Source: an uncultured bacterium (GTDB lineage: Bacteria; Babelota; Babeliae; Babelales; Babelaceae). Taken from it: a DNA stretch of 64,000 bases. This document shows, in pieces, positions 38,620 through 63,794 of this stretch. Every line of letters starts with the position of its first letter. Positions within the stretch are counted from its first letter, which is position 1. Where the stretch lies: contig CAWKFG010000004.1 of NCBI GenBank assembly GCA_963848965.1, forward strand, positions 512,001 to 576,000, read 5' to 3'. The translations under genes and the position numbers were made by a program. Below the pieces are notes generated by a model, which ran no database searches, was not told where the DNA came from, and saw only the letters and a program-made list of their open reading frames with translations.

Positions 38620-39348
38620 TCATCTTTTTGTAAGAAGTTTGAGTATCTCTGGCTGTTCTGTAAGTCTTATGGTTCTATAGCCATAGTCGTCTTGAGTATT
38701 GGGATTGGCACCCTTGTTTAGAAGAAATTCTACTATATTTTTATGTCCGCCTAGGGTAGCACTCATTAAGGGTGTAAATCCTCTATTGTCAGGCTTGTTA
38801 ACGTCTGCTCCGCGTTCTACTAGGTATTGAACTATAGGTAAATGTCCTGTATATGCTGCTCGCCCAAGTAGAGTAGATTGTCCAAAATTACGATTAGGAT
38901 TCCATTTTTGTTTTTCTATAAAATCTTTTACTTGGTCTACATTGCCTTTATTAATAGTAGAAAGAAGTTGTTCTTCTTGGTTATAGTTATTTTCCCATTT
39001 CATATGGCTAATGGCTGGTAGAGCAAGTCTTTGAGCTATGTATGGTTGTTTATTAACATTACGGAATTTTCTATCTAAGTAGTTGATGAAGGCTCTTATA
39101 AATTCGTCGTTATTAAATAAGGATGTATGTTCTCCTTGTGCATTTAACTTCGTTACAATGTTCATAGCTTCAGTTAAATCTTTTGCTTTATCTATAGATT
39201 GTAGTACTGCTTGTAGATCTGGTCCTGTTTTTAGTTCTTCTGGTAGGTATTTAAATGCATCTTCTTGTATTTGTTTATGTTCTGTTTTCATAGCAAAAGT
39301 GGTGCTAAAGAAGCTTCCTACAATCGTAATAATTATGTATTTTTTCAT
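38620..39348 (-). CDS. Secreted ankyrin-repeat protein (7837/12556 family)
   Basis: Signal ending TFA-MKT; FKYLPEELK; GFTPLMSA repeats. Confidence 0.88.
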   Translation of the reverse strand: MKKYIIITIVGSFFSTTFAMKTEHKQIQEDAFKYLPEELKTGPDLQAVLQSIDKAKDLTEAMNIVTKLNAQGEHTSLFNNDEFIRAFINYLDRKFRNVNKQPYIAQRLALPAISHMKWENNYNQEEQLLSTINKGNVDQVKDFIEKQKWNPNRNFGQSTLLGRAAYTGHLPIVQYLVERGADVNKPDNRGFTPLMSATLGGHKNIVEFLLNKGANPNTQDDYGYRTIRLTEQPEILKLLTKR

Positions 39349-41382: not shown

Positions 41383-41400
41383 TATATAAAGGAAAACACT

Positions 41401-45461: not shown

Positions 45462-48017
45462 TTATTTCTTACCGCAGCACTTTTTATATTTTTTACCGGA
45501 GCCGCAGGTACATTCATCATTACGACCAACTTTATCAGCAGTTCGCTGATGAGTTACTTGAATATCTGCCGTTGGATCTTCTGGTCCCATAAGATTAAGC
45601 TCTTCAAATTCGCGCTCACGTCTTCTTTCAAATTCATGGTAGTTGAAGTGCTCAATGTTAATATGGAATACATGATGTACAACTTCTGCCCGAATTTCGC
45701 GCATCATATCTTCAAACATAGCAAATGCTTCACGCTTATATTCAATAAGCGGATTCTTTTGACCCCAGCTACGTAAGCTAATACCTTCTTTTAAGTGATC
45801 AAGGTTAAGCATATGTTGCTTCCATGATTGATCAATTGTTTCAAGCATTACCCACTTATGAGCTTCGCGCATCATCTCTTCTTTCTGTTGTGCTCGAGCT
45901 TGTTCAAGAGTAGTATTGTAGCGTTGCAAGAGAAACTGGAGCAGTCTATCTTGAAGTGCATCTGGTGCAGTTATGCCATCAAATCCTTGGCTCGTAAACT
46001 CTTTTTCATCTATACCTGTCATATGAGCAATTGCTTTTACAACTTCTTGAGCTGCTTCTTGAGTAAGCGTACGTCCTTGTGCATGGGCTGTAACAACATC
46101 TAAAAGAGCACTTTCTATCATATCATGGACAAGCACTGCAATATGCTCTTCGCCTTCAAGCACTTCTCGACGAACCTTATAAATAACTGTTCTTTGTTGA
46201 TTTAATACATCATCATACTCAAGAAGGTTACGTCTAATATCAAAATTATGTTTTTCTACTTTCTCTTGTGCAGCCTCAATACGCTTAGAGATAAAGCCTG
46301 ATTCTATAGTTTCTTCTTCTGTCATACCAATACGCTGCATATTCTTTTTAATGGTATCTCCAGCAAAGATACGAATAAGGTCATCTTCTAAAGAGATATA
46401 GAAGCGCGATTCACCAGGATCTCCTTGACGACCAGAACGACCACGAAGCTGATTATCAATACGGCGACTTTCATGCCGTTCAGTACCAAGAATATAGAGC
46501 CCTCCTGCTTGTACTGATTCTGGAGCAAGCTTAATGTCAGTACCGCGACCTGCCATATTAGTAGCAATAGTCACGTGGCCTTGTTCACCTGCATGAGCTA
46601 CAATTTCTGCTTCCCGCGCGTGATTTTTAGCATTAAGAACATCATGAGGAATATTACTAGCAGTAAGAATCATACTCAGCAATTCAGAAGTCTCAATTGC
46701 AATAGTACCAATAAGTACCGGTTGTCCTTTTTCATGGCGCTGTCTTACATCTTCAGCAATTGCTTTGTATTTAGCATTCTTTGTTAAAAAGATAAGATCT
46801 GCTTGGTCAATTCTGATCATTGGTTGATTAGTTGGAATACTAACAACATCCAGTTTATAAATTTTATGAAACTCTTCTGCCTCAGTGCTTGCCGTACCGG
46901 TCATACCCGCAAGCTTTTTGTAAAGCCTAAAATAATTTTGAAGAGTTATAGAAGCAAGCGTTTGTGATTCACGTTCAATACGAACATTTTCTTTTGCTTC
47001 AATTGCCTGATGCAGTCCATCACTATACCGTCTACCTGGCAAAATACGCCCAGTAAATTCATCTACAATAAGCACTTGATCTTCTTTTACCACGTAATGT
47101 ACATCGCGCTTAAAGAGTGCGTGCGCTCGTAAAGCCTGTGTTACATGGTGCAAGAGCTTTAAATTTTCAAGAGCATAGAGATTTTCAATACCAAAGAATG
47201 TTTCAATCTTGTCATTACCTGACTCAGTTAACTGTACAGAACGAGTTTTTTCATCAACTTCGTAATCGGTTCCTTGCACAAGGTTAAACATCGCTCTATT
47301 TGCATCTACATAAAGCTTACTACTTTCATCAGATGATCCTGAAATAATAAGCGGTGTTCGTGCTTCGTCAATCAAGATAGAGTCAACTTCATCGACAATA
47401 CCATAACTGAGATCTCGTTGTACATAATCTGCTAGCCTGAACTTCATATTATCACGCAGATAATCAAAACCAAGCTCATTATTTGTAGCATACGTAATGT
47501 CAGCATTATATGCATTTTTACGATCTTGATCAGAAGATGAATTTTGAATAATACCAAGAGAAAGACCTAAGTGGTTATAAATAGGGCTCATCCATTCAGC
47601 ATCACGACGAGCCAAATAGTCGTTAACGGTAATTAAATGAACACCTTTTCCTGTAAGTGCATTAAGATACAAAGGCAACGTAGAAGTAAGGGTTTTACCT
47701 TCCCCTGTTTTCATCTCTGCTATTTTACCTTGATGTAATACCATCCCACCAATAAGCTGTACATCAAAGTGGCGTTGCCCTATCTTTCGTCGTGCAGTTT
47801 CTCGAACAACAGCAAATGCCTCAGGCAGAATATCATCAAGCGATCTTCCTCGTTCAAGGTGATCTTTAAACTCACCTGTTTTTGCAGTAAGCTGCTCATC
47901 TGATAATGTTTCAATTGTTCGTTCAAGTTCGTTAATTCTACTAACTAGTGGCTGCAACTTTTTAAGTTGCCGCGCGTTATTTGTTCCAAAAATCTTTGCA
48001 AGTATTGCTGCAATCAT
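45462..48017 (-). CDS. secA: Preprotein translocase ATPase SecA
   Basis: EMKTGEGKT, VDEVDSILIDEARTPLIISG, ATNMAGRGTDI, C-terminal SEC-C zinc motif. Confidence 0.97.
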   Translation of the reverse strand: MIAAILAKIFGTNNARQLKKLQPLVSRINELERTIETLSDEQLTAKTGEFKDHLERGRSLDDILPEAFAVVRETARRKIGQRHFDVQLIGGMVLHQGKIAEMKTGEGKTLTSTLPLYLNALTGKGVHLITVNDYLARRDAEWMSPIYNHLGLSLGIIQNSSSDQDRKNAYNADITYATNNELGFDYLRDNMKFRLADYVQRDLSYGIVDEVDSILIDEARTPLIISGSSDESSKLYVDANRAMFNLVQGTDYEVDEKTRSVQLTESGNDKIETFFGIENLYALENLKLLHHVTQALRAHALFKRDVHYVVKEDQVLIVDEFTGRILPGRRYSDGLHQAIEAKENVRIERESQTLASITLQNYFRLYKKLAGMTGTASTEAEEFHKIYKLDVVSIPTNQPMIRIDQADLIFLTKNAKYKAIAEDVRQRHEKGQPVLIGTIAIETSELLSMILTASNIPHDVLNAKNHAREAEIVAHAGEQGHVTIATNMAGRGTDIKLAPESVQAGGLYILGTERHESRRIDNQLRGRSGRQGDPGESRFYISLEDDLIRIFAGDTIKKNMQRIGMTEEETIESGFISKRIEAAQEKVEKHNFDIRRNLLEYDDVLNQQRTVIYKVRREVLEGEEHIAVLVHDMIESALLDVVTAHAQGRTLTQEAAQEVVKAIAHMTGIDEKEFTSQGFDGITAPDALQDRLLQFLLQRYNTTLEQARAQQKEEMMREAHKWVMLETIDQSWKQHMLNLDHLKEGISLRSWGQKNPLIEYKREAFAMFEDMMREIRAEVVHHVFHINIEHFNYHEFERRREREFEELNLMGPEDPTADIQVTHQRTADKVGRNDECTCGSGKKYKKCCGKK

Positions 48018-48107: not shown

Positions 48108-48836
48108 TTATTTAAGAGCTACAATAGTAAGCTGCCGTGCTGCTTGTGCTCCTTGGCGTCTATGTGAGCAAAAAGACTCATGACATATTGTACAAATATT
48201 ATAGTTACAATGGAAAGATTCTTTTTTTACTCCGTATGCTTCAAGCAATAGCTTATTAAAAAGAGGCAAATCAAAATAGAGGTCCTGTCTATGGTAAAAA
48301 AGTACCTGATCAGTAAGATCAAATCCTTTAAGATTATTTTCAAAATCAGGAGTCACTTTATAACAACAACCACGGGCTGAAGGACCAAAAAATATTCGTA
48401 TATGCTCAAGCTTTGTACCACATTCTTTTTCCATTGCCTGTACTGTCTTGATCGCTATGTTGCTTACTGATCCCACCCATCCTGCATGGCAAATACCAAT
48501 AGCATGTGAAAGACTATCATAAAAAACAATAGGAAGGCAATCAGCAGTATATACTCCTAAGCCTATATGTCCTAATTGTGTAACGAGGTAGTCACCCTCT
48601 TCCTTATGCTTGATAAGCGCTATTGCCTTATCTGGAGATACCACTATTCCTTTATCACTGTGTGTTTGCTTTAAGAACAGAAGCTTTTCGAGCTGCATAA
48701 GTTTTTTAATGCGATTTAAAGAGCTGTTTTTCCACAACTCTTCTTGTGCACAATCTTGTGTACATACATCACGTGCTAGCCCTGTACGAGCATCACCAAA
48801 ATAAATGGAAAGTAAAGGATCACTATGTAAAATCAT
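48108..48836 (-). CDS. pgeF: Peptidoglycan editing factor PgeF (YfiH)
   Basis: LKQTHS, TADCLPI, CHAGW, ICTIC..FCSHRR. Confidence 0.9.
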   Translation of the reverse strand: MILHSDPLLSIYFGDARTGLARDVCTQDCAQEELWKNSSLNRIKKLMQLEKLLFLKQTHSDKGIVVSPDKAIALIKHKEEGDYLVTQLGHIGLGVYTADCLPIVFYDSLSHAIGICHAGWVGSVSNIAIKTVQAMEKECGTKLEHIRIFFGPSARGCCYKVTPDFENNLKGFDLTDQVLFYHRQDLYFDLPLFNKLLLEAYGVKKESFHCNYNICTICHESFCSHRRQGAQAARQLTIVALK

Positions 48837-48924: not shown

Positions 48925-51900
48925 TCACTTTTTCTCTTCATCCTGTTTTTTGTAACGTTCTTCAAACTCTTTTATCCTTTCTTCGAAAAGAGCTTCACCT
49001 CCACCATCAAGATTAGCTTTTTTACAACATTCTTCTAACTCTTGCATTTCTTTTCTAGCAAGACTGCCAACGTCAAGGATCTGTCGTACTTCTGCAAGTT
49101 CTTTTTTGAGCTTTGGACCTTTTCTTTGTAGTTTCTTCATATGTTGTGTAAGAATCTTTTTAACTCCTATAGCACTAACTTTACCTGCTAAATCAATTGC
49201 ATCAAAGCCATCTTGATTTTTCAATTGCACATTAGCTCCCGCTTGTAAAAGAAGCTTTACTAGTTCTTCCTGCTTTTTTGTAGATTCTACCGTTAAACTA
49301 GAGCCTAGAGTTCTATTATCACATGCAAGTATAAGTGCTGTATTACCTATTTTATTCTGTATATTAATCGATGCCCCTTTTTCAATAAGATATCGCGCTA
49401 CATCTAGGCGTTGATTCATACAAGCAAATAGTAATGCAGTACATCCTTCTTTACTAACTATATCAAGCTTTGCTCCTTTTTCTACAAGAAGCTTTACTAT
49501 ATCATACGAGCCACGCTCAGCTGCGCCCATTAATGGTGTACCTCCTGCAAAGTTCTGAACGTTTGGACAAGCTCCTTTATTCAGTAAAAGCTGTACTATG
49601 TCTAAAGAGTTTACTTCTACTGCCGCTAACAAAGGATTGCCACCAAACTTATTTGATTTTTCTATGTTTGCTCCTCTTTCAAGCAATAAGGTCACAAGCT
49701 CTTTATTTTTCTTCTCACAGGCACCAATAAGTGGGGTACCTCCTAATTTATTTTGTTGGTCTATATCAGCACCTGCATCAAGAAGTAATTGCATAAGTTT
49801 TTCATCCTGTTTTTCACAAGCTACAAGCAGCAGAGTCCCACCTTGTGTGGTAAGTCTATTAACATTGGCACCATATTCAAGAAGAAGCTTAACAGTTTCA
49901 TAGGACCCCTGTGATAGTGCAAGAATTAAGGGACTATTACCATTATTATCACATCCTTCAACATCTATATGTGGAAGAGAAAGAAGCAGTTGTACTATTT
50001 CTTCATTACCTTTTATAAGCGCTTGCATTAAGGGAGTCATACCAGCAGTATTTCTGGCATGTGGATTTGCACCTGCTTCAATAAGGCACTTTACCACTTC
50101 CGGCACACTGCTATCACACGCACAATGAAGAACGGTATTGCCATTAGGTAAAACGTACTTTGGATCTGCTCCGTGGCAAAGCAGCATTTTTACAACGTCT
50201 CTATCTTTTGTTTTTGAGATACATGCTGCACTGAGAGCAATTGCTCCGCAAGGATCGCTTTCAGTTATACAAGCACCAGCACGTAAAAGAATTTCTACAA
50301 TTTCTCGTGACCCTTGAATACATGCAGCCATAAGGGGAGTCCATCCACGTTTATTAACATGATGGATATCTATAGAGGGTACTTTTAAAAGCATTTCAAC
50401 CACTTCTTTTGATTCTGCATCGCAAGCATAAGTTAAAGGAGTTGAGCCATCTTTGTCTTGGATGTTAATTGGTAGGCCTTGTTTTAAAAGAAATTCTAAA
50501 GCTGTTACTTTGTTCCTAATAATGAAATCTTTTAACTCTTCACTAAAATCTGATATCGTGGATATATCTAAATTTCCTTTTTGTACAAGCAGCTCAGCTA
50601 TATCCCAAGCATCCACTGCAAGAACAAGAAAGAGCATTTTATAAGTGGCAGGAAGCCCATAGTCTAAACAGAGCTTTATGAGATCATAGGTAACTCCATA
50701 AGAAAAAAGAAAGTTCTCCACTTCTTTACTTTTGACAAGATAACCATACTTCGCCTTATCAAAAAGAAGTCTAAGTGCTCCTGTTTTTTTCTCTTTAATC
50801 AAGTACTCTATAATTTCTAGTTTGTGTTTATCATTGAGCAATTCAAGAAAGCTATTCCTGTTAAGTGTCTCAAATTCTTCACCAACAGATTCTTGTGAGA
50901 GCTCAGTTAATTCTGAAAATGCAGCTAATTTTCTACAAAGTATTTCCATTTCACGCGTTTCAGCCTGTTTTACGAGCTCTTTGAGCGTTTGGGGAATCCC
51001 TTTAAAGTTAATAAGATCAGAAATAGTTTTGCCTGCCTTATTTCTACACAAAACTGAAGCTCCACTTTGAACTAACATACTACTTATCTCATACCTCTTT
51101 CCTAAAACTGCATAATGAAGAGCTGTACACCCTTGATTATCTTGTGTATTAAGCTCAAGATGTGGACATTCCAAAAGCGCTTGAACTGCTTCTGTATTGC
51201 CTTGTTGTACTGCAACTATTAAAGGGGTTATCCCGCGCTCATGTACATAGTTAAGATCACTAGTTATACCTTGCCTTAATGTTTGATGATCATTAAAATA
51301 GGCTGCTATCATTGCGTGGCAATAGCCTTGTGCTTTAAGTTCCTCAGTTACCCTCTGCCTTCGTTCATGTTCTTGTGCTTGCAACGCCTCTTCTTTTCTT
51401 TTTTGCTCAAACTCTTGCAAACAGGCAACAAGAGGAGTCTGCGATTGAGCATAATATAGAGCAGTATGTCCTGCTTTAGTTTTAGCATGTATATCAGCTC
51501 CCGATGAACACAACACAGTAACCATTTTTATATTATGAGATTTTACTGCTCGCATTACTATAGTTTCTCCGTGCTCATTAGCATAGTCAAGCGCACGAGG
51601 ATAATAAGTAAGAAATGCCTCGACTATTTCTACAGAACAGGTACTTACAAGCTCTAAAAGAGCTTCTCCTGCTTGCTGTACCCCAAACTTAACTATTTCC
51701 TGAGCAAGACATAGATTAAAGAGACTAATATCACCTTCACGAGCTATATTCAAAATCATTTTATATACTAACGTAGGAAGCTGAGAAGCTATAAAACGAA
51801 CGAGTTCAATATCTTTGTTATCTAACGCTCTTTTACAACACGTAAGTATACTTTCCTCTCTTATTATCCCATGTTCAATAAGAAGTTTCATACTAGCAGT

Positions 51901-53901
51901 ATCTCTATTGTCAAAAGCTATAACAAAGGCATCACGTTGTTTATCGTCAACCGAAGATGTGGAAGCACATTGTAGTTCAATTATTTGCTGCGCTAATTCA
52001 TACTTCTTCTCTCGGATTGCATATAAAAATGGCGTACAGCCATCTCTGCTTATCTTTTTATTCTTAAAAAGAAGCAATGCTGCTTTTCTCTCTTCAGTTA
52101 AAGAACCCTTACGAATATCTGATTGCAATACCTGATATTTCTGTTGCAGAGCTTCTTTCTCCTTTTGCTCTCTTTCACGCAAAGGTGCATTAAGCCCTTC
52201 TACAACGGTTAAAAGCGTTGAAGCAATGAGCTTGCTTTTATGTTTTTGAGCATAATCACAAATGCTTATGCCATAAGGAGATAGTATACGAGGATCTGCT
52301 CCCATTTGAAGAAGTATCTCTACAAGTTCCTGATGCTCATGTTCTACTGCATACATGAGAGCAGTTACATTATACTCATTATGCTCATTGACATTAACAC
52401 CTTGAGCAAGAAGTTTTTTTACTGCGCTTACATTCTTAGTGTGTACTGCATACATAAGTTCTGTTGCTTTGTTTTCTTCAAGCCATGCACGTTTTTTTTG
52501 CATAAACTGCTCAATGCTCTGTACAATGGCTTTACCGTTATACTTTTTAGCCAGCACTAAAGCTGTTTCTCCTTTTGCGTTTACCAGACTAACATCTGCA
52601 CCATAGTCTAACAAAAGGTTTACTAAGGACAATCTATCAAGCATAACTGCATGCATTAACGCAGTATTTCCTTCGCTATCCTGTGTATCTACGTCTGTAT
52701 TATGCTCGTGCAAGAGCTCAATAATAGCTTTGCATCTGTCATTATCGTCTTTCTCTTCTTGCAATGCTTGTACTGCTAACATTAAAGCGGTTCTTTTATA
52801 CTTATCCTGTATATGCGGGTTTGCACCAGAACGGAGTAATAATTCTACATTATCAATATGTTTATAGGTAGCTGCAAGCATAAGCGGTGTATGGCCGTCA
52901 TTATTTTGCTTATTAATCGTATCTAGATCACAAAGCATTAATACACAACGGAAACTCTCTCCCTGAGCTGCATAATGGAGTGGCGTAGCGCCTTTTTTAT
53001 TACTTGTAGCACATGAAGCTTCATGCATAAGAAGTAAAGAAACGAGTTCAGTATTACCTGAAAGTGCTGCTCGCATAAGAGGAGTAACTCCCTCAGAAGT
53101 AGTTACCTCAGGATCCGCTTCAATAGAAAGCATATTCAACACCTTTTGATAATCCTGTTGCTCTACTGCTTCTATAAGCTTAGGAACTTTTATATAACTT
53201 GCCACTTGTTGTTGCTGTGAAGGCACCTTCTTAGAGACATTATATGTTTTTTGCCGCTGCACAAGCTCACGTATATCTTGTTCAATATGTGGCAACTTTT
53301 TGTTTATAAGAGGAAAGAGCGTAAGAATGTGCATGCTTTTACTAATACGAGGGCATCCCTTTATTACCATCTGTACTGGTACATCTTCATTATTACCAGA
53401 AGCAGGTATAACAGTAACGATATAGGTTTTATACATGCTACAGCTTTCACGTTTCTCTTCCTGTATATGTACCGTTCCCTCTGTCATAAGACGATGTATA
53501 TAGGCAATGACATCTTTTTTTTGCCAACCAACTGGGAAAAATGTTTTTACGTCTGCTACCCCTTGATGTATAACATAGCCTTGATGAAATTTTCCGCTAT
53601 CTTCTACGGCTACAACTTGATGTAAAGGGGTAAATGTACCAAGCGTTACTCCTTCTTTTAATAAAGACTTATGGGGCGCTGGTGCATATACATGGAAACC
53701 TGAAATCGTATGTACGTCTTTTGATACACATATTTTCTGGCATCTTACAACGTGATTAAGAACATCTTTTAACGGTAAAATGTGATGATATCCATCAAGA
53801 ACAAGCTCTACTGAGCTTTCACTTTCTATAATGGGAGTTTGTTCTTTCTCCATTGCAAAAAGAGCACTGCTCACACTTAAAAAGATAATAAATTTATACA
53901 T
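48925..53901 (-). CDS. Giant secreted protein: EndoU-like nuclease domain + long ankyrin array (copy C)
   Basis: Signal ending LFA-MEK; H50, GFH70, K119-TFFPVGW, ILTLFP; then >20 ankyrin repeats. Confidence 0.85.
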   Translation of the reverse strand: MYKFIIFLSVSSALFAMEKEQTPIIESESSVELVLDGYHHILPLKDVLNHVVRCQKICVSKDVHTISGFHVYAPAPHKSLLKEGVTLGTFTPLHQVVAVEDSGKFHQGYVIHQGVADVKTFFPVGWQKKDVIAYIHRLMTEGTVHIQEEKRESCSMYKTYIVTVIPASGNNEDVPVQMVIKGCPRISKSMHILTLFPLINKKLPHIEQDIRELVQRQKTYNVSKKVPSQQQQVASYIKVPKLIEAVEQQDYQKVLNMLSIEADPEVTTSEGVTPLMRAALSGNTELVSLLLMHEASCATSNKKGATPLHYAAQGESFRCVLMLCDLDTINKQNNDGHTPLMLAATYKHIDNVELLLRSGANPHIQDKYKRTALMLAVQALQEEKDDNDRCKAIIELLHEHNTDVDTQDSEGNTALMHAVMLDRLSLVNLLLDYGADVSLVNAKGETALVLAKKYNGKAIVQSIEQFMQKKRAWLEENKATELMYAVHTKNVSAVKKLLAQGVNVNEHNEYNVTALMYAVEHEHQELVEILLQMGADPRILSPYGISICDYAQKHKSKLIASTLLTVVEGLNAPLREREQKEKEALQQKYQVLQSDIRKGSLTEERKAALLLFKNKKISRDGCTPFLYAIREKKYELAQQIIELQCASTSSVDDKQRDAFVIAFDNRDTASMKLLIEHGIIREESILTCCKRALDNKDIELVRFIASQLPTLVYKMILNIAREGDISLFNLCLAQEIVKFGVQQAGEALLELVSTCSVEIVEAFLTYYPRALDYANEHGETIVMRAVKSHNIKMVTVLCSSGADIHAKTKAGHTALYYAQSQTPLVACLQEFEQKRKEEALQAQEHERRQRVTEELKAQGYCHAMIAAYFNDHQTLRQGITSDLNYVHERGITPLIVAVQQGNTEAVQALLECPHLELNTQDNQGCTALHYAVLGKRYEISSMLVQSGASVLCRNKAGKTISDLINFKGIPQTLKELVKQAETREMEILCRKLAAFSELTELSQESVGEEFETLNRNSFLELLNDKHKLEIIEYLIKEKKTGALRLLFDKAKYGYLVKSKEVENFLFSYGVTYDLIKLCLDYGLPATYKMLFLVLAVDAWDIAELLVQKGNLDISTISDFSEELKDFIIRNKVTALEFLLKQGLPINIQDKDGSTPLTYACDAESKEVVEMLLKVPSIDIHHVNKRGWTPLMAACIQGSREIVEILLRAGACITESDPCGAIALSAACISKTKDRDVVKMLLCHGADPKYVLPNGNTVLHCACDSSVPEVVKCLIEAGANPHARNTAGMTPLMQALIKGNEEIVQLLLSLPHIDVEGCDNNGNSPLILALSQGSYETVKLLLEYGANVNRLTTQGGTLLLVACEKQDEKLMQLLLDAGADIDQQNKLGGTPLIGACEKKNKELVTLLLERGANIEKSNKFGGNPLLAAVEVNSLDIVQLLLNKGACPNVQNFAGGTPLMGAAERGSYDIVKLLVEKGAKLDIVSKEGCTALLFACMNQRLDVARYLIEKGASINIQNKIGNTALILACDNRTLGSSLTVESTKKQEELVKLLLQAGANVQLKNQDGFDAIDLAGKVSAIGVKKILTQHMKKLQRKGPKLKKELAEVRQILDVGSLARKEMQELEECCKKANLDGGGEALFEERIKEFEERYKKQDEEKK

Positions 53902-53913
53902 AGCTTATCTCAC

Positions 53914-56900
53914 TTATTTTTTCTTAGCACGTATATGTTCAAGTAAAAGAGCTTGAATTTCTTTATGTTTTAACTCAGACGCTAGAGTAAGCGCATCCTT
54001 CCTTTGGTTATTTTTTATAGAGCAATCAGCACCATGCTGCAAAAGCACCTGCACAACCTCTTTACGATTATTCATAGCCGCATGCATAAGTGCAGTATTG
54101 CCAGAAATTTCTTGTATATTTACATCTGCCTTATACTTTAACAAAGAATTGACTATTCTTAAAAATCCATGAGAAGATGCTGTAATTAAAGCAGTACAAC
54201 TTTGAACTCCCTGTATATTAACATGAGCGCCAGCTTTTAGTAAATGCTCTACTGTATCTGCACATCCACTTGCTGCAGCACACAACAGAGGGGTATTTTT
54301 ATCTATCCCTGCTTTATTAACATTTACACCATACTTAATCAGAAGCTCAACAACAGAAGCAGTATCTTTAAGAGTACATAATCTTATTAAAACAGGATTT
54401 CCCTGCTTATCAAGTGAGTTAGGTGAAACTTCTGCTTCCAATAAAAGCTTAATTATTGGGTAATTACCAAGGTGACAGGCAGCAACAAATGCCATAGCTT
54501 TATACGTGTCTTTTATTTCCTGGGATAAAAGATACCGCACAACTTCAACTTGGTCTGCCGCTACAGCCGATATAAGAGGATTAAAATTTTTATCAACAGT
54601 ATGTACATCAGCACCCTTTGCTATAAGGAATCGCGCTAACCGTTCATGCCCTTTAGTACATGCATAGGTAAGAGCACTGTAGTTGTCTTTCGTTACAGCG
54701 TTTATTAAAGCTCCACGAGCCAAAAGTAGTATCACAATATCTTCATGATTCTTATCACACGCAACTGTTAAAGGAGTTCGTCCATCTGGAAGTTTAACGT
54801 TAGCGGATGCTCCTCGATCTAAGAAATACCGCACCATATCAGGCCTATTTTCTAGCACAGGAGCAAAGAGGATATGTGAGGCCTTTTTTTCATCACAGCT
54901 ATCCATATCTAAGCCATGGCTCAATAAAAATTCTACTACTTCTTCATTACCTCTACAGCTTACATTCCAAAATATATTACGCCACATATGATCATTCTTA
55001 TCTACAGAAGGATAGTAAGAAAACAGTAAACGTGCTATTTCATTCGTTTTTCTATCAATAGCAATTCTAAAAGCATTTCCGCTCATGTTATTTTTTATAG
55101 AAACATCCGCACCTGCTTGCAAAAGAAGTTTCACAACTTCCGTATGTCCCATAAAACATGCAAGATGAAGAGCGGTATTTCCTTCATTGTTTGCACAATT
55201 AACCCGAGCACCTTTTTTAAGAAAGAACCTTACCAGTGGAACTCGTCCTGCCTGGCTTGCCACCATAAGCGGAGTACCATCATTCTTATCTGCCATATTA
55301 ACATCGGCTCCAGCATCAAGTAAAAAGGTAATAAGCTCATCCTGCTTTTCCATACAAGCAGCTAACAAAGGAGTAATGCCATCAGTCTCATCACAACAAT
55401 TGAGAGAGACACCTTTTTTTACAAGAAGTTCAATAAGCCCCTTAACGTTGTTTATATGAAGGAGTCTATGAAGTATCAAGCCAGGAAAATCATTTCTTAT
55501 GCGCCTACAGAGTTCAACCAAAACATTCGAAGCTAGCTGCCTGTTTTCAGATACAGATTCATGACAATATTCAATTAAGAACTTTATAGTATCTTCAGAA
55601 AAGTTTCTTTGTATAAGATTCAGAAGCATGCGCCATGTAACAGGAGCTCCATATCTAATAAGCAATTGAGCTTTTTCAAATGCACTTTCATCTTGCATTT
55701 CTATATTCCAGGTTTTTAGCATTGATAAATGATCTGTTTTTTTAAGAAGTATTTCAACACTATCAAGATGACCATTATTCAACAGAACCGCAATAATTGT
55801 TTCTTTAAACTTTGTTCTAAAAAAGTTAAAAGGCGTACGAGCATTAATCTCATCAAAGCGTTTTTCTTTTTCTACAGTTGAAACATCTTCTGACAAACTA
55901 TCAATAATTGCTTGAATTTCTCCTACTTCAGCTGCTAGAAGCAGTTCTTTTATATGAGTGGCTGTAGCTTTTAAACTTACTATATTCGATGCTACTTTAA
56001 ACAGCTCTTCCATCTGCACAGCAGATAGTTTTAAATTAAGCATGTCAAAAGCCGTTCTTTGGTTATTATCAACAATTAAAGCAGCTACTCCACTGCGCAC
56101 TAACTCTTCTGCAATAGTATGATGCTTATTAAGCACAGCATACATAAGAGCAGTTAAACCTTGGTTATCTTTTTGGTTTTTATTACATCCCTGTTTTTTC
56201 ACAAGCGCTCTTATTGCCTCTAGATGTCCTTTTTGAGCTGCTATCATTAAAGCCGTTGTACCATCTTTAGTAGCGCAATTAACATCACATGTTATATCAT
56301 TCTCAATAGCTTTATCATCATTATAATGAGCAGCTATCATTAAAGCTGAATATCCTTGGATTCTGAGCCCTTCAACTGTCTTTTGTATGTGTTCTCGCTC
56401 TTGTGCTTGAACAGTTGTTTTCACTTTCGCTTGCTCAATCTTTTGTAATAGCATAAAGACAGGACTTTTAGAATGTGTATAATCAAACACAGTACGCCCA
56501 CTGGTTGTTCTACTTTCTAAAGATGCACCTGCATTGTATAATCGAGTTATAACATCTTCTCTCTGAACTTTTGCAGCTATCATAAGCGCTGTTTCTCCGT
56601 ACCCATTAGCATACATCACAGTAGCAGGATAGCATGCAATAATAAGGTCAATAATAGCTGTAGTAGATCTTTGTACTGCAGCTACTAAAAGTTCACCTGC
56701 CTGCACCTCATCAAGTTGTAGACCACTATGCTCTAAAAGAAACTCAACGCATTCTTTATCTGGTTTAGAAAGAGCATTATATAACATCTTTATGAGTACA
56801 TAAGGAACAGTATGCGCAAATACCTCTAATAAAGCATTTTTTTGGGTAGTCATTGCTTTTTGAAAGCACTGTTCTATAGTACTTTCCTTTGGTATACCAT

Positions 56901-58929
56901 GGTTGAAAAGAAGCTTAATCATTATAAGATCTTCATTATCGCATGCAATAGAAAGAGCGTCTCTCTTATTATCATCCAAAGCATACGAGACAAACTGCTC
57001 TTTTATCATCTGTTCTACGAGGTTATATTTCTTCTCTCGTACCGCGTATAAAAATGGCGTACAGCCATCTTTAGATATCTTACGCTCTTGCAAAATAGAA
57101 AGCGCTTCTCTTCCTGCTTGAGTTAAACAGTCATGAGCAAGATCTGATTGCAAAGCTTTTAATTTCTCTTGTAATACTATTTTTTCTTTTTGCTCTTTCT
57201 CTTTGAAGGAAGCAGCATATTTTTCCATATGTCTTTCTACAAGAAGCTTTATCCTTTGGTCTATCTGTGTGCTTTCTTGTACATACTGATATAGCGGATA
57301 TTTATAAGGAGTTGTAAGCCGAGGATCGGCATCAGTCTCTAAAAGTTGTTGTAAAAGTTTTATGTTATTGGTTTCTACAGCAAAAAACAGTGCTGTATGA
57401 CCATAAGCCCCTTGCTCATTGCTATCTGCACCTGAGGCAAGCATCTTTTTTACCTTATTTTCATTACCAGTAAAAACAGCATACATAAGTTCCGTTGCTG
57501 CGCATTCTCGTAACCACTCATGCTTTTCTTGTATATGTTTTTCAATACAATGTGCAATAGCAGTATATGAACGCTTTTTTGCTAAACTTAAAGCAGATTC
57601 TCCCTTTTTATTTTTCATCTCTGTATCTGCATAAAATCTCAAAAGGAGTTCAACAAAAGATAAACGGTCAAGGTCCGTTGCATGCATTAAAGCCGTCATC
57701 TCGTCTGTATCATATGCATCTCTATCTGCTCCGTGCATAAGCAAGAGCTCTATAAGAGCTTTACACAACAAAAGATCTTCTTTCTTTCTATGCACTGCAG
57801 TTACTGCCATACTTAAAGGAGTTCGCTTATAGGTATCTCTGCAATTGGTATCTGCACCAAAACGTACTAAAAGCTCTGCAATATCAACAAGTTTCTGATC
57901 AATAGCAAGCATAAGTGGAGTTATACCTTCGTTATTAGGCCTATTAATAGTTTCTTTATCTAAAAGGCTTAATACACAGTGGAAATCTCCTGAGAGTACT
58001 GCATAATGCAATGGAGTATTGCCTTTATGATCTCAAGCTGTTTTAGATGCATTGTTAAGAAGCAACAGAGATACAAGTTCCCACTCTCCACTTCGTGCTG
58101 CTTTCATTAAAGGAGTTGTTCCTTCTTGAGTAGCTCCTTCAATATTAGCTCCTAATGAAATAAGATGTGTTACACGTTGAAAATCTTTTTGCTCTATAGC
58201 TGTAAATAATTTTGAAACTTTAACTCGTTTTTTCCTTTGTGCTTGCTGGCAGGGAAGCCTTTGCTCAAGCAAATATTTTTTTTGTTCTTGTATACAAGCA
58301 TGAACGCTCACTTCAAGAGAAGAAAGATTTCCTTTAATAAGAGGAAAAAGAGTAATAATGCGCATGAGTCTTTCTGCTTTTGGACATCCCTTAAGAACCA
58401 TATATAAAGGAGTATCTTCTGAGTGCGCTTGAGATGGCACTAAAGTAACTTGATATGTTTTAAAGCTGCTAGAGCTTTCTTGAGCCTCTTCTTTAATTTT
58501 TACAGTTCCTTCTGCCATAAGGCGATGTATATAGGCAATAATATCCTTTCTCTGCCATCCTACAGGAAAAAATGCCTTAGGGCATGCTACGCCAAAGTAG
58601 ACAACATATCCCTTATGAAACTTTGTTATATCTCCTAATGCTAGTACTTTATGAAGAGGACTAAACGCACTAATAGTCTCTTTACCATCACTTGTAGTCT
58701 TTATTGAAGGATATACATGAAAGCCAGAGATAGTAAGCTCTTCTCTTGATTTTGGCACTTGCTGGCAACCATAGAGGTGATTGAGGACATCTTTTAGTGG
58801 TAAAATATGATGTACTCCATCAAGAACAAGTTCTAGCGAACTTTCTGCTTCTATAATCTGCTCTTGCTCTTTTTCCATAGCCCAAAGAGTCGGCACTATG
58901 CTTAAAAAAAGCGCTAATAATATATACAT
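53914..58929 (-). CDS. Giant EndoU-like + ankyrin protein (copy B), interrupted by one in-frame TGA at 58033-58035
   Basis: ORFs 58033-58929 and 53914-58011 are in one frame: SKTA-TGA-DHKGNTPLHYAV aligns with SKTACDDKRNTVLHYAV of copy A. Confidence 0.82.
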
Positions 58930-58969
58930 TATGTGTCCTACAAATTTTAGGATTTATTTTTTAGAGTAA

Positions 58970-58996
58970 GGGCTGTTGCGATTTAAGCAACAGCCC
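58970..58996 (-). terminator. Hairpin downstream of copy A
   Basis: GGGCTGTTGC-7nt-GCAACAGCCC. Confidence 0.6.
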
Positions 58997-59003
58997 GCTT
59001 CCG

Positions 59004-62000
59004 TTAGTGTGGTGGTTGCTCGGCACTTGTTTGTTTTGCATATTCAAGAACGAGTTTTTTGATCTCTAATGCTCGAGCGTCCATGTCTCTTAACTGATGT
59101 TTTTTATATCTTTGAGCGTACGTCATATTTCCTGTACCTGTATTAAAAGTAAGTGCCATACCTCCATTATACTTACCAGGTCGCACGATATCAAACACAG
59201 TGCTACCCTCTTTATTTTTAAGCGAAAGATTTACTCTACGCGTAGAGAGTAATAACTGCACGATTTCCTTATGATTATTATAGCATGCGATTATTAAAGG
59301 AGTGTCCGCTTCTAAAATAACACAGACTGCCTGACTTGTAGGGTTCATAAAAATATACGCTGGCATCTGCGAAGAATATGTCTTAAGTCTTACTTGAGCA
59401 TTAACATCTGCACTTGCTTCAAGTAGAAGCTTTACAATATCTGCTCTTCCTATAGAACATGCTTTTGCTAAAGGAGTAAGGCCAGCTTCATCTAAAATAT
59501 TTGTACGTGCACCAGCTGCTAGTAAAAGCTGTACTATTTGAGCGTGGCCTCTATCACATGCACACCGTAAAGGAATCATTCCTGGACTGCCCTGAGCATT
59601 TACATCTATTCCTTTTTTAATAAGATAGTGCACTATTTCGGCTTCTCCTACTGCACATGCTAAGCAAAAGAAATTGATAACATCTTTCTTAGTTACATCT
59701 ACCTTAATAGCTTCAGAAAGTAAAAGCTCTCTAAATATTCTTCTACTTTGCAAATACTTTTCATCAAAAATATGCAGCTCAGAAATTCCTTCTTTATAAT
59801 GAGCATCTAATGAAGCACCAGCTTCAAATAAAACCTTTACTATCTCCTTATGTCCGCTTAAAGCAGCAAGCAAAAGAGCTGTATGAGCATGATCACACGT
59901 CTGATTAGGATTTGCGCCCAAATGTAGTAATAATTTTACTGCCTCTAGATTGCCTTGTTCTGCTGCAATAAGAAGAGCTGTATGACCATCAGCAATTTTA
60001 CCATCTACGGGTACACCAGCTTGTACAAGTTGATATACGATAGCAGAATGATTGTTAACAATTGCCGAATATAATGCCGTCAATCCTTTAACATCAGAAG
60101 TATTTACATGAGCGCCTGCTTTTATAAGCGCTGCTACTACATCTGCATATCCTTCTTCAGCCGCATGCATTAACGCAGTACACTTTTCCTCATCTTGAGC
60201 ATTCACATTCGCTCCACGCTTAAGAAGTAAAGAAACAATCTCAAGGTTTCCTTTATTTGCAGCATCTTGTAAAGCAGTCCATCCTTCACTATCAGCCTGA
60301 TCAATAGAGGCGCCTGCTTGCAATAAAAGTTTTCCTGCTTTTTTATTACCTACCCGGCAGGCAACACCTAGAAGATGAACACCACTATAGTTGTGATTTA
60401 CGTCTTTTATATAGCCTGTAATAAAGCGTGGTAGGACAACGCCTTCTTTGTCATGTTCACAAAGTGCTGAAAATATGCTAACACTCTCTTCATTACCACC
60501 CATTTCTACAGTACCTGTATTTAATAAAAGCTGTGCTAATGCAAGTTTACCTGCTTCTAAGGCAGACAGTACTATCTTAGCAGGAATACAAGTATAATAG
60601 TTTAGAAGAGTAATAACGATCGCAGAATCATTACATTGTACAGCATATTCTAAAGGATCAAGAAGCGCTTTTTCCTGCTTTTTTTGTGGATAAGGCATAA
60701 CATTAAGAAGCATCTTAAGCATATCTGCTCGACCTAATCCAACAACCTGATTAATAAGGTATATTTTATCATCATCATGCAACTTCCTTAAATGAAATTT
60801 AAATCTATCAAAATAAGTTGCAATTTCAGCAGGAACAGACATTTTTGCTCCTAAGCTTAGATATATAGATAACTCTTGCCGCAGTTTTCGTTTTGCAGAT
60901 TCTTTAACAAATGGAGGAACTTCTTGCATCTCAAGCAGTTGCATAATACTTTCACCAGCTTTATTTACAAAGCATACAACCGCCCCTGCAGCTATAAGAG
61001 CTTGTGCAATTTCATAGTGCTTGTATTTTACTGCATACATTAAAGCAGTATTGCTTATTACATCTGCCTGATTTACCTTGACACCTTGTTTTGCAAGAAG
61101 CATACGAACCATATCACTCGCTCCTTGACAAGCTGCAATCATAAGAGCAGTCTGCTTTGATTTGTCACATGCATTTACGTCATCATTACTACGTTGAACA
61201 GCTTCTTTTTCACCAAAATGAACAGCTATCATTAACGGAGTACACCCTTCTTCTTCGAGCTTCTTTTGTACAAGCTCTTTAGTTTGTAAGTGTTGTACTC
61301 TCAGAGCTTCTTCTTTTTTCCTTTTCTCAGGAGTTTCTAATAGATTGCATAAATGAGCATTATATTTTGCATGATCTAGAGCACTAGCACCATCTTTATC
61401 TTTCAGATGTATATTTGCACCAGCATTAGAAAGCAGTTCAACAATACTATAACGCTCTAACTTTACCGCTCTCATAAGCGGAGTTTCTCCTCTTTCATAA
61501 GCATAATCAATACCAAAAGCACAGTATTTAAGCATGATTTTAACTATACTTTCATCTAAGCTTTGAATAGCTTCAAACAGAAGTTGTCCTGCTTGCTCTG
61601 GTGTAAGTTCAATAATATGTTCTTGAAAGATAAGTTCCACTGTGCTTACTTCATGCTTTGTTATGGCTTTGCGGATAAAACTATAGACAGTGTACAGTGC
61701 TTTTTGGGCAAGAAGTCGTGCACGTGCGTACTTTTTATGTGTAAGCACAGCCGTAAAATTATGCTCTATACTAGATCCTCTCACTTTTCCGCTTGCAATA
61801 AGCAAAGATACCATTTCACTATCTTCATTATCAAGTGCAATACAAAGAGCATCTCTATTGTTACTATCTTCAGCTTGAGTAGATGCTCCTAAAGCAAGTA
61901 ATTGAGATACTGCATTATACTTGCGCTCTCGCACTGCATAGAGTAAAGGAGTACAGCCATCCTTACTCATAGCTTGATTATTAAATTGCGAAATGATCTC

Positions 62001-63794
62001 TAAAGGAACTTTGCTTACATCATTCTTCATAATATAATCATGCAAAAGAACAAACTTTCGTTGCCGCTCATTATTTTCTTTTGTCCTCTTTTCCTTAAGA
62101 AGAGCACGATACTCTTGTGCCGCTTGCTCTATTACCTCTCTTACTGAAGGAAGTATTTTTGAGTTCTGATGTACATAATGATCAATGCTCTGAGCATACT
62201 GCGTTTGAAAACAAGGATTCGCTCCTTTTTGAAGAAGTACTTGCACAAGTTCAAGATTATTATTATCTGCAGCAAAAAAGAGAGCTGTTCTTCCTACGTT
62301 ATCTTGCTCATCTATTTCATGTGATACTACAAGCTGTTTTACCTGTGCTGTATTATTGCTATACGCTGCATATAAAAATTCGCTTGCTGCATAGTCTTTC
62401 ATCCAAGTATTTTTACGCTCAATAACACGCTCTATACATTTTAAAAGAGTCTGATCTGCATTCTTTTTAGCAAGAGAAAGCGTCGATTCACCTCTGTTAT
62501 TCTTCAAAGTATAACCTGCATGAGCATTTAACAGAAGCTCGACAAGAGGTATTTTATTGTGAAATGCAGCATGAATAAGAGCACTGTCTCCTGCCTTATC
62601 TTGAGCGTCTATTTCCGCTCCATATTTTATAAGTAATTCTACTATAGCCTTATAGAACAGAGTTCCTTTAGGATCTACCTGAGTCACTGCATGCATAAGT
62701 GCAGTTCTTCCAAAAGCATCTTTTGCATTAAGTTCAACATGCCATTGAAGAAGTAAGCTTACTATATCAACATGTTTATTTATAACAGCAAGCATTAAGG
62801 GAGTTATTCCTTCATTATTCTGAGCATTTAAAGTTTCAGGACTTATAAGTCCTAAAACACAGTAAAAGTCTCCTGATTGTACTGCATAATGAAGCACTGT
62901 ATTACGTTTGTCATCACACGCTGTCTTTGAAGCACCATATTCAAGTAAAGTATTTACCAAACACCAGTCTCCAGCCTTTGCACACATCATAAGAGGAGTA
63001 ATGCCTCTTTCATTTGCTATAGTAGGATCTGCCCCTTTTTCTAGAAGCTCTATCACTTTTGATACATACCCTTCCTCTACAGCCTGTATAAGCTCTGGCT
63101 TTCTTTCTACTTTCTTTACCGTATTCAAGCCTTTTGCTTGCTGTACAGCAAATGATTCAAGGTTTGCCAAGGGATAGTCTTTGTGTTGTATTTCTGGATA
63201 TACCGTAAGTATATGCATACTCTCTTTGACACCAGGACATCCAAGCACAAAAAGTCGCAGTGGCGTTATCAATCTACTTACAGGCAAAGGAATCATCTTA
63301 ACACGATATACCTTATAGCTCTCACTTGTACGTTCCTTACGTTCTTTTACCTGCAATTCGCTTTCTTGGTGCATTCCCTTAATATAGTGAGCTATATCAT
63401 GGATGTTCCAATTACACGGAAAAAAAGTTTTTGGCGCTTTACAGACTTTTCCTCGATAGATAACATAGCCTGTATGAAATGAATAGATATCTCCTAATGC
63501 AACGATCCACAGTCCTGGCGTTAATTTGCATAACGTAGCACCGTTTCCAAGATCTATCTTTTCTGCAGTAGTACCATACCAGTGGAATCCTTTAACACAT
63601 ATCTCTTTGGTCAAAGGATCAGTGAGTATCTGATAATTGCAAATATGGGCAAGCACTTTCTGTAACGAGATAGTATACGGAACACTTTCTAACTTAAGAG
63701 TAACACTCATGCTATCTTCAGGAGCTTTTTCCATAGCACTTACAGAAGAAATGCAGAGAAAAAGACTCAAGACGAGCGTCAATAATTTCTTCAT
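59004..63794 (-). CDS. Giant secreted EndoU-like + ankyrin protein (copy A)
   Basis: Signal ending VSA-MEK; LAHI, KGFHWY, APKTFFPCNWNIHDIAHYI, ILTVYP; >20 ankyrin repeats. Confidence 0.85.
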   Translation of the reverse strand: MKKLLTLVLSLFLCISSVSAMEKAPEDSMSVTLKLESVPYTISLQKVLAHICNYQILTDPLTKEICVKGFHWYGTTAEKIDLGNGATLCKLTPGLWIVALGDIYSFHTGYVIYRGKVCKAPKTFFPCNWNIHDIAHYIKGMHQESELQVKERKERTSESYKVYRVKMIPLPVSRLITPLRLFVLGCPGVKESMHILTVYPEIQHKDYPLANLESFAVQQAKGLNTVKKVERKPELIQAVEEGYVSKVIELLEKGADPTIANERGITPLMMCAKAGDWCLVNTLLEYGASKTACDDKRNTVLHYAVQSGDFYCVLGLISPETLNAQNNEGITPLMLAVINKHVDIVSLLLQWHVELNAKDAFGRTALMHAVTQVDPKGTLFYKAIVELLIKYGAEIDAQDKAGDSALIHAAFHNKIPLVELLLNAHAGYTLKNNRGESTLSLAKKNADQTLLKCIERVIERKNTWMKDYAASEFLYAAYSNNTAQVKQLVVSHEIDEQDNVGRTALFFAADNNNLELVQVLLQKGANPCFQTQYAQSIDHYVHQNSKILPSVREVIEQAAQEYRALLKEKRTKENNERQRKFVLLHDYIMKNDVSKVPLEIISQFNNQAMSKDGCTPLLYAVRERKYNAVSQLLALGASTQAEDSNNRDALCIALDNEDSEMVSLLIASGKVRGSSIEHNFTAVLTHKKYARARLLAQKALYTVYSFIRKAITKHEVSTVELIFQEHIIELTPEQAGQLLFEAIQSLDESIVKIMLKYCAFGIDYAYERGETPLMRAVKLERYSIVELLSNAGANIHLKDKDGASALDHAKYNAHLCNLLETPEKRKKEEALRVQHLQTKELVQKKLEEEGCTPLMIAVHFGEKEAVQRSNDDVNACDKSKQTALMIAACQGASDMVRMLLAKQGVKVNQADVISNTALMYAVKYKHYEIAQALIAAGAVVCFVNKAGESIMQLLEMQEVPPFVKESAKRKLRQELSIYLSLGAKMSVPAEIATYFDRFKFHLRKLHDDDKIYLINQVVGLGRADMLKMLLNVMPYPQKKQEKALLDPLEYAVQCNDSAIVITLLNYYTCIPAKIVLSALEAGKLALAQLLLNTGTVEMGGNEESVSIFSALCEHDKEGVVLPRFITGYIKDVNHNYSGVHLLGVACRVGNKKAGKLLLQAGASIDQADSEGWTALQDAANKGNLEIVSLLLKRGANVNAQDEEKCTALMHAAEEGYADVVAALIKAGAHVNTSDVKGLTALYSAIVNNHSAIVYQLVQAGVPVDGKIADGHTALLIAAEQGNLEAVKLLLHLGANPNQTCDHAHTALLLAALSGHKEIVKVLFEAGASLDAHYKEGISELHIFDEKYLQSRRIFRELLLSEAIKVDVTKKDVINFFCLACAVGEAEIVHYLIKKGIDVNAQGSPGMIPLRCACDRGHAQIVQLLLAAGARTNILDEAGLTPLAKACSIGRADIVKLLLEASADVNAQVRLKTYSSQMPAYIFMNPTSQAVCVILEADTPLIIACYNNHKEIVQLLLSTRRVNLSLKNKEGSTVFDIVRPGKYNGGMALTFNTGTGNMTYAQRYKKHQLRDMDARALEIKKLVLEYAKQTSAEQPPH

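Follow-up and report, generated by a model that had tools for sequence, protein, structure and literature searches.

Three adjoining genes in a 64,000-nt stretch of an uncultured Babelaceae genome (contig CAWKFG010000004.1, positions 512,001 to 576,000) were found to encode large proteins in which a signal-like N-terminus and an EndoU-like head precede a long tail of ankyrin repeats. The whole stretch is referred to as the window, and gene coordinates are given on its scale. The heads are almost certainly divergent homologues of EndoU endoribonucleases, as judged from family-level sequence comparison. The proteins are best explained as head-first secreted RNase effectors aimed at a protist host, and the probability of this full reading is estimated at about 0.55. 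The SecA protein encoded in the window is closest to those of Candidatus Babeliales and TM6 metagenome-assembled genomes (66-70% identity), and therefore the organism is a Dependentiae bacterium. Dependentiae (Babeliales) are obligate parasites of protists. The genome (G000) is 1.73 Mb in length and 88.7% complete.

EndoU-like heads of the tandem ankyrin proteins

The three genes, designated copies A, B, and C, are paralogs on the minus strand (Table 1), separated by 74 bp (A-B) and 12 bp (B-C). They are old duplicates with an overall identity of 33-40%. Their heads of ~180 aa are not ankyrin and have in common the motifs LxH, GFH, FHxGY, K[T/A]FFPxxW, and I[L/I]T[L/V][F/Y]P. The head is better conserved than the ankyrin tail among the copies: the identity between B and C is 62% over the first 150 alignment columns and 22-36% past column 1050. 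Pfam Ank_2 matches A and C with E-values of 1e-133 and 3.7e-153, respectively, and a self-built repeat hidden Markov model (HMM) detected 23 (A), 21 (B), and 24 (C) ankyrin units, arranged in blocks that are interrupted by a non-ankyrin gap near aa 950-1150.

A preceding description of this DNA from its letters alone (the sequence-only reading) had pictured three tandem paralogs of ~1600 aa with gaps of 12 and 74 bp, each with an N-terminal domain behind a signal-like sequence, the shared motifs LxH, GFH, K[T/A]FFPxxW, and I[L/I]T[L/V][F/Y]P, more than 20 ankyrin repeats, and more diverged C-terminal parts. The coordinates of the open reading frames (ORFs), the hydrophobic segment in all copies with the head beginning at aa 28-29, the presence of these motifs in all three copies, the 21-24 repeat units, and the fall in identity along the B-C alignment all agree with this picture. 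The length holds for A and C, but not for B, which is read as 298 plus 1372 codons.

A profile of the three heads, searched against 1.84 billion representative proteins, retrieved only 50 relatives at E<=0.001. Most of them are 1200-2000 aa long and match at their N-terminus, and some are only 131-251 aa. The first ~240 residues of 48 relatives were aligned (alignment A3; mean column identity 22%). Scanned singly, 40 of these 48 members matched Pfam PF14436 (EndoU_bacteria) at E<=1 (best 2.8e-7), and the next family was matched by two. The curated cut-off of PF14436, 25.3 bits, is exceeded by five N-terminal-type genes in the genome G137 (30.1-39.2 bits) and by the N-terminal-type relative P0030 (27.8 bits, residues 60-187). 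A second alignment, A4, comprises 31 EndoU_bacteria domains from the same phylum: 30 over the cut-off, each the best of one of 30 other genomes, and the C-terminal domain encoded elsewhere in G000 itself. Comparison of A3 with A4 by hhalign gave a probability of 98.45% and an E-value of 3.9e-15 over 140 columns, and LxH, GFH, KTFFPxxW, and TxYP were placed on the equivalent motifs of canonical EndoU. The C-terminal EndoU domain of G000 matched the N-terminal family by hhalign with an E-value of 8e-5; searched alone against PDB sequences, it retrieved nothing.

The head is identified as an EndoU homologue because of this profile-profile match, the family-wide Pfam matches, and the best structural neighbours described below; the same three lines bear out the EndoU assignment made by the sequence-only reading. 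The window copies by themselves are unconvincing as EndoU at the sequence level. The comparison of each copy with EndoU_bacteria that had been suggested stayed below 25.3 bits for single copies, but it succeeded for the family profile (98.45%). Weak matches to BREX_BrxC_wHTH and DnaD_N (E 0.03-0.15) were dismissed, the former being found in only two of the 48 members. A search for related loci with the copy C head alone returned only one match, to a Bacteroidia metagenome-assembled genome (34 residues, 44%), and this was taken as chance.

A4, the canonical profile, and 5hkq_A, the CdiA-CT EndoU toxin of solved structure, align over their whole length (E 0.0053). In this alignment, the invariant His, the His of GfH, and the (k)sTFFP and aYP segments fall on H187, H204, K261-T262, and H321. 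According to Table 1 of PMC9086364, H187, H204, K261, T262, and H321 form the active site of the 5HKQ toxin, which cleaves tRNA-Glu. Two chained alignments map H187/H204/K261-T262/H321 to H50/H70/K119-T120/F196 of copy C, and H50, H70, and K119 are the residues that the sequence-only reading had picked as catalytic. In A3, H50 is kept in 47 of the 48 relatives, H70 in 48, K119 in 47, Thr or Ser at T120 in 42, Thr or Ser at T194 on the last strand in 46, and P197 in 48. The last-strand motif is T194-L-F-P in C, T197-V-Y-P in A, and T193-L-F-P in B. Ala is found in place of the Thr beside the Lys in copy B and in one dispersed paralog. The Tox-EndoU signature is given as H, H, [SNT], [SNT] in the description of that family (PMC3482391), and the conserved His/His/Thr-Ser pattern of the aligned heads matches it. 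A third His, in FHxGY, is present in 47 of the 48 members, but the canonical EndoU consensus lacks an equivalent. At the column of 5HKQ H321, the family has 35 Tyr, 11 Phe, and two His. The FHxGY His may be a relocated active-site residue.

From the conservation of these residues, the heads are probably catalytically active RNases. The contrary explanation is that the head is a dead EndoU relic, now an RNA-binding or folding module of otherwise ordinary ankyrin effectors. Such a relic would fit the low sequence scores of the window copies as well as copy B, which lacks the Thr beside the Lys and carries a stop codon. However, 46-48 of the 48 members retain the two His, the Lys, and the last-strand Thr/Ser at a mean identity of 22%, which is rare in dead enzymes, and this explanation is regarded as the least probable of those discussed here.

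From just the three window copies, AlphaFold2 produced a model too poor for use, with a predicted local distance difference test score (pLDDT) of 33.9, and the 48-row alignment was needed. With that alignment, the head of copy C was modelled with pLDDT 93.4 and a predicted template modelling score (pTM) of 0.87. In its second half, the model has a helix and then four strands, the last of which (174-180 of the modelled segment) carries T194; the same layout is described for EndoU-like proteins (bioRxiv 10.64898/2026.08.28.747851; PMC7297114). The model was aligned to 48,161 representative chains, independently of Foldseek. MERS Nsp15 ranked first (Z 5.9, root-mean-square deviation (rmsd) 4.3, 120 residues aligned), calcium-activated EndoU 9ftw second (Z 5.4, rmsd 3.8, 126 aligned), CdiA-CT 5hkq fourth (Z 4.7, rmsd 4.1, 118 of 143 aligned), EAV nsp11 sixth (Z 4.6, rmsd 4.3, 100 aligned), and XendoU 25th (Z 3.9, rmsd 4.0, 118 aligned). 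Z>=5 was reached by only two of the 48,161 chains, and unrelated chains at Z 4-5 align just 46-70 residues to the model. When the top 1000 Foldseek chains were re-aligned, SARS-CoV-2 Nsp15, EndoU, and HCoV-229E Nsp15 occupied ranks 1-3 (Z 5.5-5.9). The head is therefore predicted by the model to have the EndoU fold, with its two alpha/beta units. The structural Z-scores are modest and would be insufficient alone, and they agree with the sequence evidence.

The frame of copy B is broken by one in-frame TGA (Table 1), beyond which 1372 further codons are open. In the relatives, the column aligned to this codon is variable (C, S, Q, V, K, I, Q, Q, and H). Decoding as selenocysteine was rejected, since no tRNA-Sec was found among 33 tRNAs of the 88.7%-complete assembly and the column is variable and not conserved as Cys. 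Either a recent nonsense mutation or a fault in the assembly accounts for the TGA. Copy B as assembled would yield a 298-aa protein of signal and head, resembling the stand-alone forms in the relatives. The TGA, the change from Thr to Ala beside the putative catalytic Lys of copy B, and the sub-threshold Pfam scores of the window copies were overlooked in the sequence-only reading.

Table 1. Coordinates of the ankyrin protein genes, their parts, and other genes discussed. Positions without a prefix are those of the window; the prefix G000 marks positions elsewhere in the genome, with the contig.
Feature	Position	Strand	Description	Evidence
Copy A	59004-63794	-	Intact gene, 1596 aa; signal-like N-terminus, EndoU-like head, 23 ankyrin units	ORF and translation, Pfam, repeat HMM
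Copy A, signal-like segment	63735-63794	-	aa 1-20, ends VSA/ME	
Copy A, EndoU-like domain	63165-63710	-	aa 29-210; H50, H71, H107, K122-T123, T197	Alignments; PF14436 13.1-13.5 bits
Copy A, third His	63474-63476	-	FHxGY	A3 alignment
Copy A, ankyrin region	59226-63095	-	aa 234-1523, 23 units, non-ankyrin gap ~aa 944-1140	
Copy B	53914-58929	-	1671 codons, broken by one in-frame TGA; 21 ankyrin units	ORF, translation, repeat HMM
Copy B, signal-like N-terminus	58879-58929	-		
Copy B, EndoU-like domain	58312-58845	-	aa 29-206; H51, H71, H105, K118-A119, T193	Alignments; no PF14436 match at E<=10
Copy B, third His	58615-58617	-	FHxGY	A3 alignment
Copy B, in-frame TGA	58033-58035	-	Codon 299, inside the second detected ankyrin unit (flanks aa 267-299, 300-330)	
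Copy C	48925-53901	-	Intact gene, 1658 aa; 24 ankyrin units	ORF and translation, Pfam, repeat HMM
Copy C, signal-like N-terminus	53851-53901	-		
Copy C, EndoU-like domain	53287-53820	-	aa 28-205; H50, H70, H106, K119-T120, T194	PF14436 E 0.013-0.017, 15.9-16.7 bits; model
Copy C, third His	53584-53586	-	H106, FHxGY	A3 alignment
Cu-oxidase_4 family gene	48108-48836	-	Same strand, downstream of the array	
secA	45462-48017	-	Same strand, two genes downstream of the array	
T2SS-E/PilB-type ATPase	26343-28052	-		PF00437, E 8.5e-142
Three clustered secretin genes	G000:C4:767-775 kb			
Classical EndoU toxin	G000:C5:20873-25396	-	1508-aa frame, domain aa 1373-1492	PF14436 24.8 bits (near threshold)
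131-aa ORF	G000:C5:20488-20880		Overlaps the toxin end	No Pfam family
131-aa paralog	G000:C5:19575-19967		42% identical; 0.9 kb further on, past a SpoU-type methylase gene	No Pfam family

Family distribution, tails, and immunity genes

The array stands as a tandem set of three, as described before, but the genome total is seven such N-terminal domains: the other four genes are dispersed and encode 1227-1497 aa. In a phylum sample of 201 genomes, full-length N-terminal-type matches were found in four, G000 (7), G137 (13), G133 (4), and G197 (6). These genes are mostly in tandem arrays, with a spacing close to the ORF length. The EndoU_bacteria domain is present over the cut-off in 71 of the 201 genomes, and the canonical type is much commoner than the N-terminal type. 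The best 30 canonical matches, drawn from 30 different genomes, are all at the C-terminal tip, with only 1-19 aa left before the stop codon. When 48 N-terminal-type and 31 C-terminal-type domains were placed in one tree, a single branch split the two types, with weak support (SH-aLRT 79); its groups were pre-defined by the retrieval route, and no origin is drawn from it. Behind a full-length canonical C-terminal EndoU gene there are often short ORFs that encode just the C-terminal domain half, and some of these have internal stops (G181:C7:145024-146750, G011:C1:265594-269104, and G036:C12:82907-85471). These half-domain ORFs resemble orphan toxin cassettes.

Eight relatives were scanned over their full length. 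Four of the tails are clearly ankyrin (over the Ank_2 cut-off), two are Sel1 tails behind an EndoU-like head (P0030 and P0039, from other assemblies), one (P0021) has weak TPR and ankyrin signals, all under the Pfam cut-offs, and one has no repeat family. Short stand-alone heads without a tail also occur among the relatives. The survey across Dependentiae suggested by the sequence-only reading did recover the head-first architecture in four of the sampled genomes, but ankyrin is not the sole tail type. The same reading had warned that an ankyrin-only annotation would hide the head. Among 10 relatives looked up, three carry source names, two being 'ankyrin repeat protein' and one 'uncharacterized protein', as this warning would lead one to expect.

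The tails bear on the explanation that these proteins are digestive RNases, exported for bulk breakdown of host RNA and nucleotide scavenging by a parasite lacking biosynthesis, with the tail as an anchor or bulk. The active-site and export evidence is the same as for effectors. Degradation of host polymers by secreted nucleases and proteases is proposed for Chromulinavorax, with endoU among the nucleases (PMC6561590). However, a tail of 1400 aa is needless for a bulk nuclease, while the fast divergence of the tails (22-36%) and the exchange for Sel1 or TPR fit partner choice better. Stand-alone forms of 131-251 aa exist, and these would suit digestion better. The digestive explanation is rather unlikely on this evidence.

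Lying at aa 28-210, the head is not a C-terminal toxin tip of the kind that defines polymorphic toxins. No ORF family that could represent an immunity-like neighbour is shared among the 2.5-kb flanks of eight EndoU loci (blastp, E<=1e-3), paralogs aside. Together with the 12- and 74-bp gaps, this result confirms the earlier statement that the array leaves no room for immunity genes.

A single classical EndoU toxin is encoded elsewhere in the same genome, and its locus as a whole (L008) spans G000:C5:19575-25396. One 131-aa ORF overlaps the end of the toxin gene and a paralog follows (Table 1). The arrangement is typical of an immunity pair, and the two ORFs are likely candidates for immunity proteins. 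None of the seven N-terminal-type genes has a homologue of either ORF next to it.

This locus is relevant to the explanation that the N-terminal-type proteins are weapons against competitors, such as other bacteria or giant viruses in the same host cell, as are classical polymorphic toxins. EndoU_bacteria is a typical toxin tip, carried by 71 of the 201 phylum genomes and placed at the C-terminal tip in the best 30. Here, in contrast, the domain is N-terminal, with no immunity neighbour and no cassette structure, and the separate classical EndoU locus in the genome fills that role, so that use against competitors seems highly improbable.

It could also be supposed that the ankyrin tail is a built-in inhibitor, an immunity in cis and not a targeting device; the RNase would become active only once the tail had been removed or engaged. 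For some polymorphic toxins, PMC3482391 names ankyrin repeats (Imm-ank) as the immunity proteins, and no separate immunity gene is present in the array. Nevertheless, Imm-ank proteins are small and separate, 21-24 repeats far exceed the need for covering one 180-aa domain, and tail-less heads exist in the relatives. Export by Sec would already account for self-protection. A role as inhibitor is considered improbable.

Putative export signals and the proposed action on the host

The N-termini of A, B, and C have a hydrophobic signal-like segment ending in A-M-E. All seven paralogs share a hydrophobic N-terminal run of ~12-16 residues that ends in [A/S/T/G]-M-[E/Q]. A hydrophobic run with [AGSTC]-M-[EQ] within the first 45 residues is found in 100 of the 1186 ATG-starting ORFs of at least 150 aa in the genome, and any other residue in place of the Met gives only 2-17 ORFs each. 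The junctions in these 100 ORFs contain Ala (30), Ser (28), or Gly (27) before the Met and Glu (78) or Gln (22) after it; the median position of the Met is 21. Ankyrin-like proteins account for 36 of the 100. Of the 51 proteins P0001-P0051, several of which are encoded by G000, 15 show the strict junction pattern. Among the 100 ORFs, 66 have a Shine-Dalgarno-like word before the first ATG, and none has one before the inner ATG. The junction Met as the true start was rejected based on these counts and on the hydrophobic segment being kept in distant relatives. The [A/S/G]-M-[E/Q] sequence may be a lineage-specific signal-peptide junction or a sorting motif. The genome encodes three secretins and two ATPases of the T2SS-E type (of the type II secretion system, T2SS), one of the ATPases being encoded in the window (Table 1).

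Several other genes surround the array. A RING-finger ankyrin gene lies ~5 kb past the window end on the minus strand (G000:C4:581219-585445; L046:6220-10446); its 1408-aa product has zf-RING_2 with an E-value of 7.9e-14 and a eukaryote-type architecture similar to E3 ligases. A HicA/HicB pair and ftsA/ftsZ are located between this gene and copy A. Within the window, a 242-aa ankyrin protein is encoded at 38620-39348. Two big adjoining ORFs of 517 and 763 aa at 39829-43692 on the plus strand, and a 249-aa ORF at 37780-38529 on the minus strand, have no Pfam family at E<=0.001.

The computations support homology to EndoU with the catalytic residues retained, the N-terminal placement of the domain behind a signal-like segment, the ankyrin tail, the absence of any neighbour resembling an immunity gene, and the expansion of the family. 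Catalysis, outer-membrane passage, host entry, and target choice by the tail are what we infer in addition. On the effector reading, the protein would be made with an N-terminal Sec-type signal and would cross the inner membrane unfolded, and the RNase would fold only outside the cytoplasm. It is proposed that no immunity gene is therefore needed. The mature N-terminus would be a divergent endoribonuclease of the EndoU fold, with a His-His-Lys(-Thr) centre and the last-strand Thr, and by analogy with other EndoU enzymes it would cleave RNA without metal via a 2',3'-cyclic phosphate. Outer-membrane passage might proceed through a secretin/T2SS-type pathway or vesicles, and the protein would then enter the host and cut host RNA. 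The tail of 1400 aa, with its 21-24 ankyrin repeats, could serve as a protein-binding solenoid that places or holds the RNase on host partners, and tandem duplication with fast tail divergence would diversify the targets.

Several observations count against the effector reading or the identification beneath it. In the sequence comparisons, the window copies miss the PF14436 cut-off (C 15.9-16.7 bits, A 13.1-13.5 bits, and B no match), and profiles of the family only (A2 and A3) found nothing relevant among PDB sequences. The match of the Lys to 5HKQ runs through two chained alignments, and the 's' of the canonical consensus at K261 leaves a register ambiguity of one residue. Copy B has both the stop codon and Ala replacing the Thr beside the Lys. 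In the structural comparisons, Foldseek searches of PDB and BFVD were empty at E<=0.001, with XendoU appearing in PDB at rank 17 (E 0.14), and Z-scores of 5.4-5.9 are in a range that, according to the tool, may reflect only a common arrangement. The structural check suggested by the sequence-only reading was accordingly divided: its Foldseek part gave no match at that threshold, but EndoU and Nsp15 were the best neighbours in the full chain alignment. With regard to delivery, a Sec signal alone reaches only the periplasm, and the outer membrane and the host membranes remain for a protein of 180 kDa. No VirB4 was found in the 88.7%-complete genome.

A wider reading is offered only tentatively. 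Dependentiae would possess a class of head-first RNases, free of immunity genes as folding follows export, with interchangeable solenoid tails (ankyrin, Sel1, and TPR) that direct cleavage to particular host complexes. These RNases would be part of a secretome of ~100 proteins with the [A/S/G]-Met-[Glu/Gln] junction, which could be a sorting or processing signal for host-directed proteins.

Comparison with known systems and significance

Bacterial EndoU toxins (PF14436), such as CdiA-CT of E. coli STEC_O31 (5HKQ), have a homologous domain, and the His-His-Lys-Thr residues and the aromatic-Pro last strand align. They carry the domain as a C-terminal tip, with contact-dependent inhibition (CDI) or other dedicated delivery and an immunity gene, whereas here it is N-terminal, with a putative Sec-type signal, an ankyrin tail, and no immunity neighbour. 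Compared with 5HKQ, the window family has the extra His (FHxGY, 47/48) and Tyr or Phe at the H321 position. The classical EndoU toxin of the same genome belongs to the same domain family, but its domain is C-terminal (aa 1373-1492 of 1508) and accompanied by an overlapping 131-aa ORF.

Nidovirus NendoU (Nsp15 and nsp11) and eukaryotic EndoU/XendoU are the best structural neighbours (Nsp15 Z 5.9, 9ftw 5.4-5.5, nsp11 4.6, and XendoU 3.8-3.9), but they have no detectable sequence match to the window heads. Their catalytic domain is C-terminal to other domains, and they act inside the producing cell or the replication complex.

Chromulinavorax destructans, of the same phylum, is reported to have 98 ankyrin proteins, 78% of them with signal peptides (PMC6561590). 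Like the window proteins with their putative signal peptides, these combine a signal peptide with ankyrin repeats and are presumed to be host-directed. In that paper, they are described as ankyrin-only with no function assigned, whereas the window proteins add an RNase-type head; endoU is listed there only as a cytoplasmic endonuclease (PMC6561590). An Ntox19-ankyrin fusion of mimivirus, listed in a table of PMC3482391, also joins a toxin-type RNase domain of the BECR fold to ankyrin repeats in an amoeba-dwelling entity. It differs in being viral and of another BECR family, and its entry describes no signal peptide.

Neither the EndoU family nor ankyrin effectors are new, and toxins that combine Sec dependence with ankyrin repeats have been described as well (PMC3482391). 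No description of an EndoU-head/ankyrin-tail fusion was found in the titles, abstracts, and text passages covered from the literature on Dependentiae, EndoU, and ankyrin proteins. What is new is the combination: an enzyme domain placed first behind a signal-like segment, interchangeable repeat tails, no immunity gene, an occurrence in few Babeliales genomes, and a subfamily that mostly escapes Pfam. The EndoU identification is solid, and the biology of delivery and target is conjecture.

Dependentiae are widespread and almost uncultured parasites of protists. More than one tenth of their genes encode ankyrin proteins whose action is unexplained, and an enzyme head would give part of this repertoire a concrete activity, RNA cleavage with three named residues. 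The layout inverts that of the usual toxin, in that the enzyme precedes the repeats and no immunity gene accompanies it, and this bears on how producers escape their own secreted nucleases. The classical EndoU toxin with its likely immunity gene in the same genome provides a built-in comparison.

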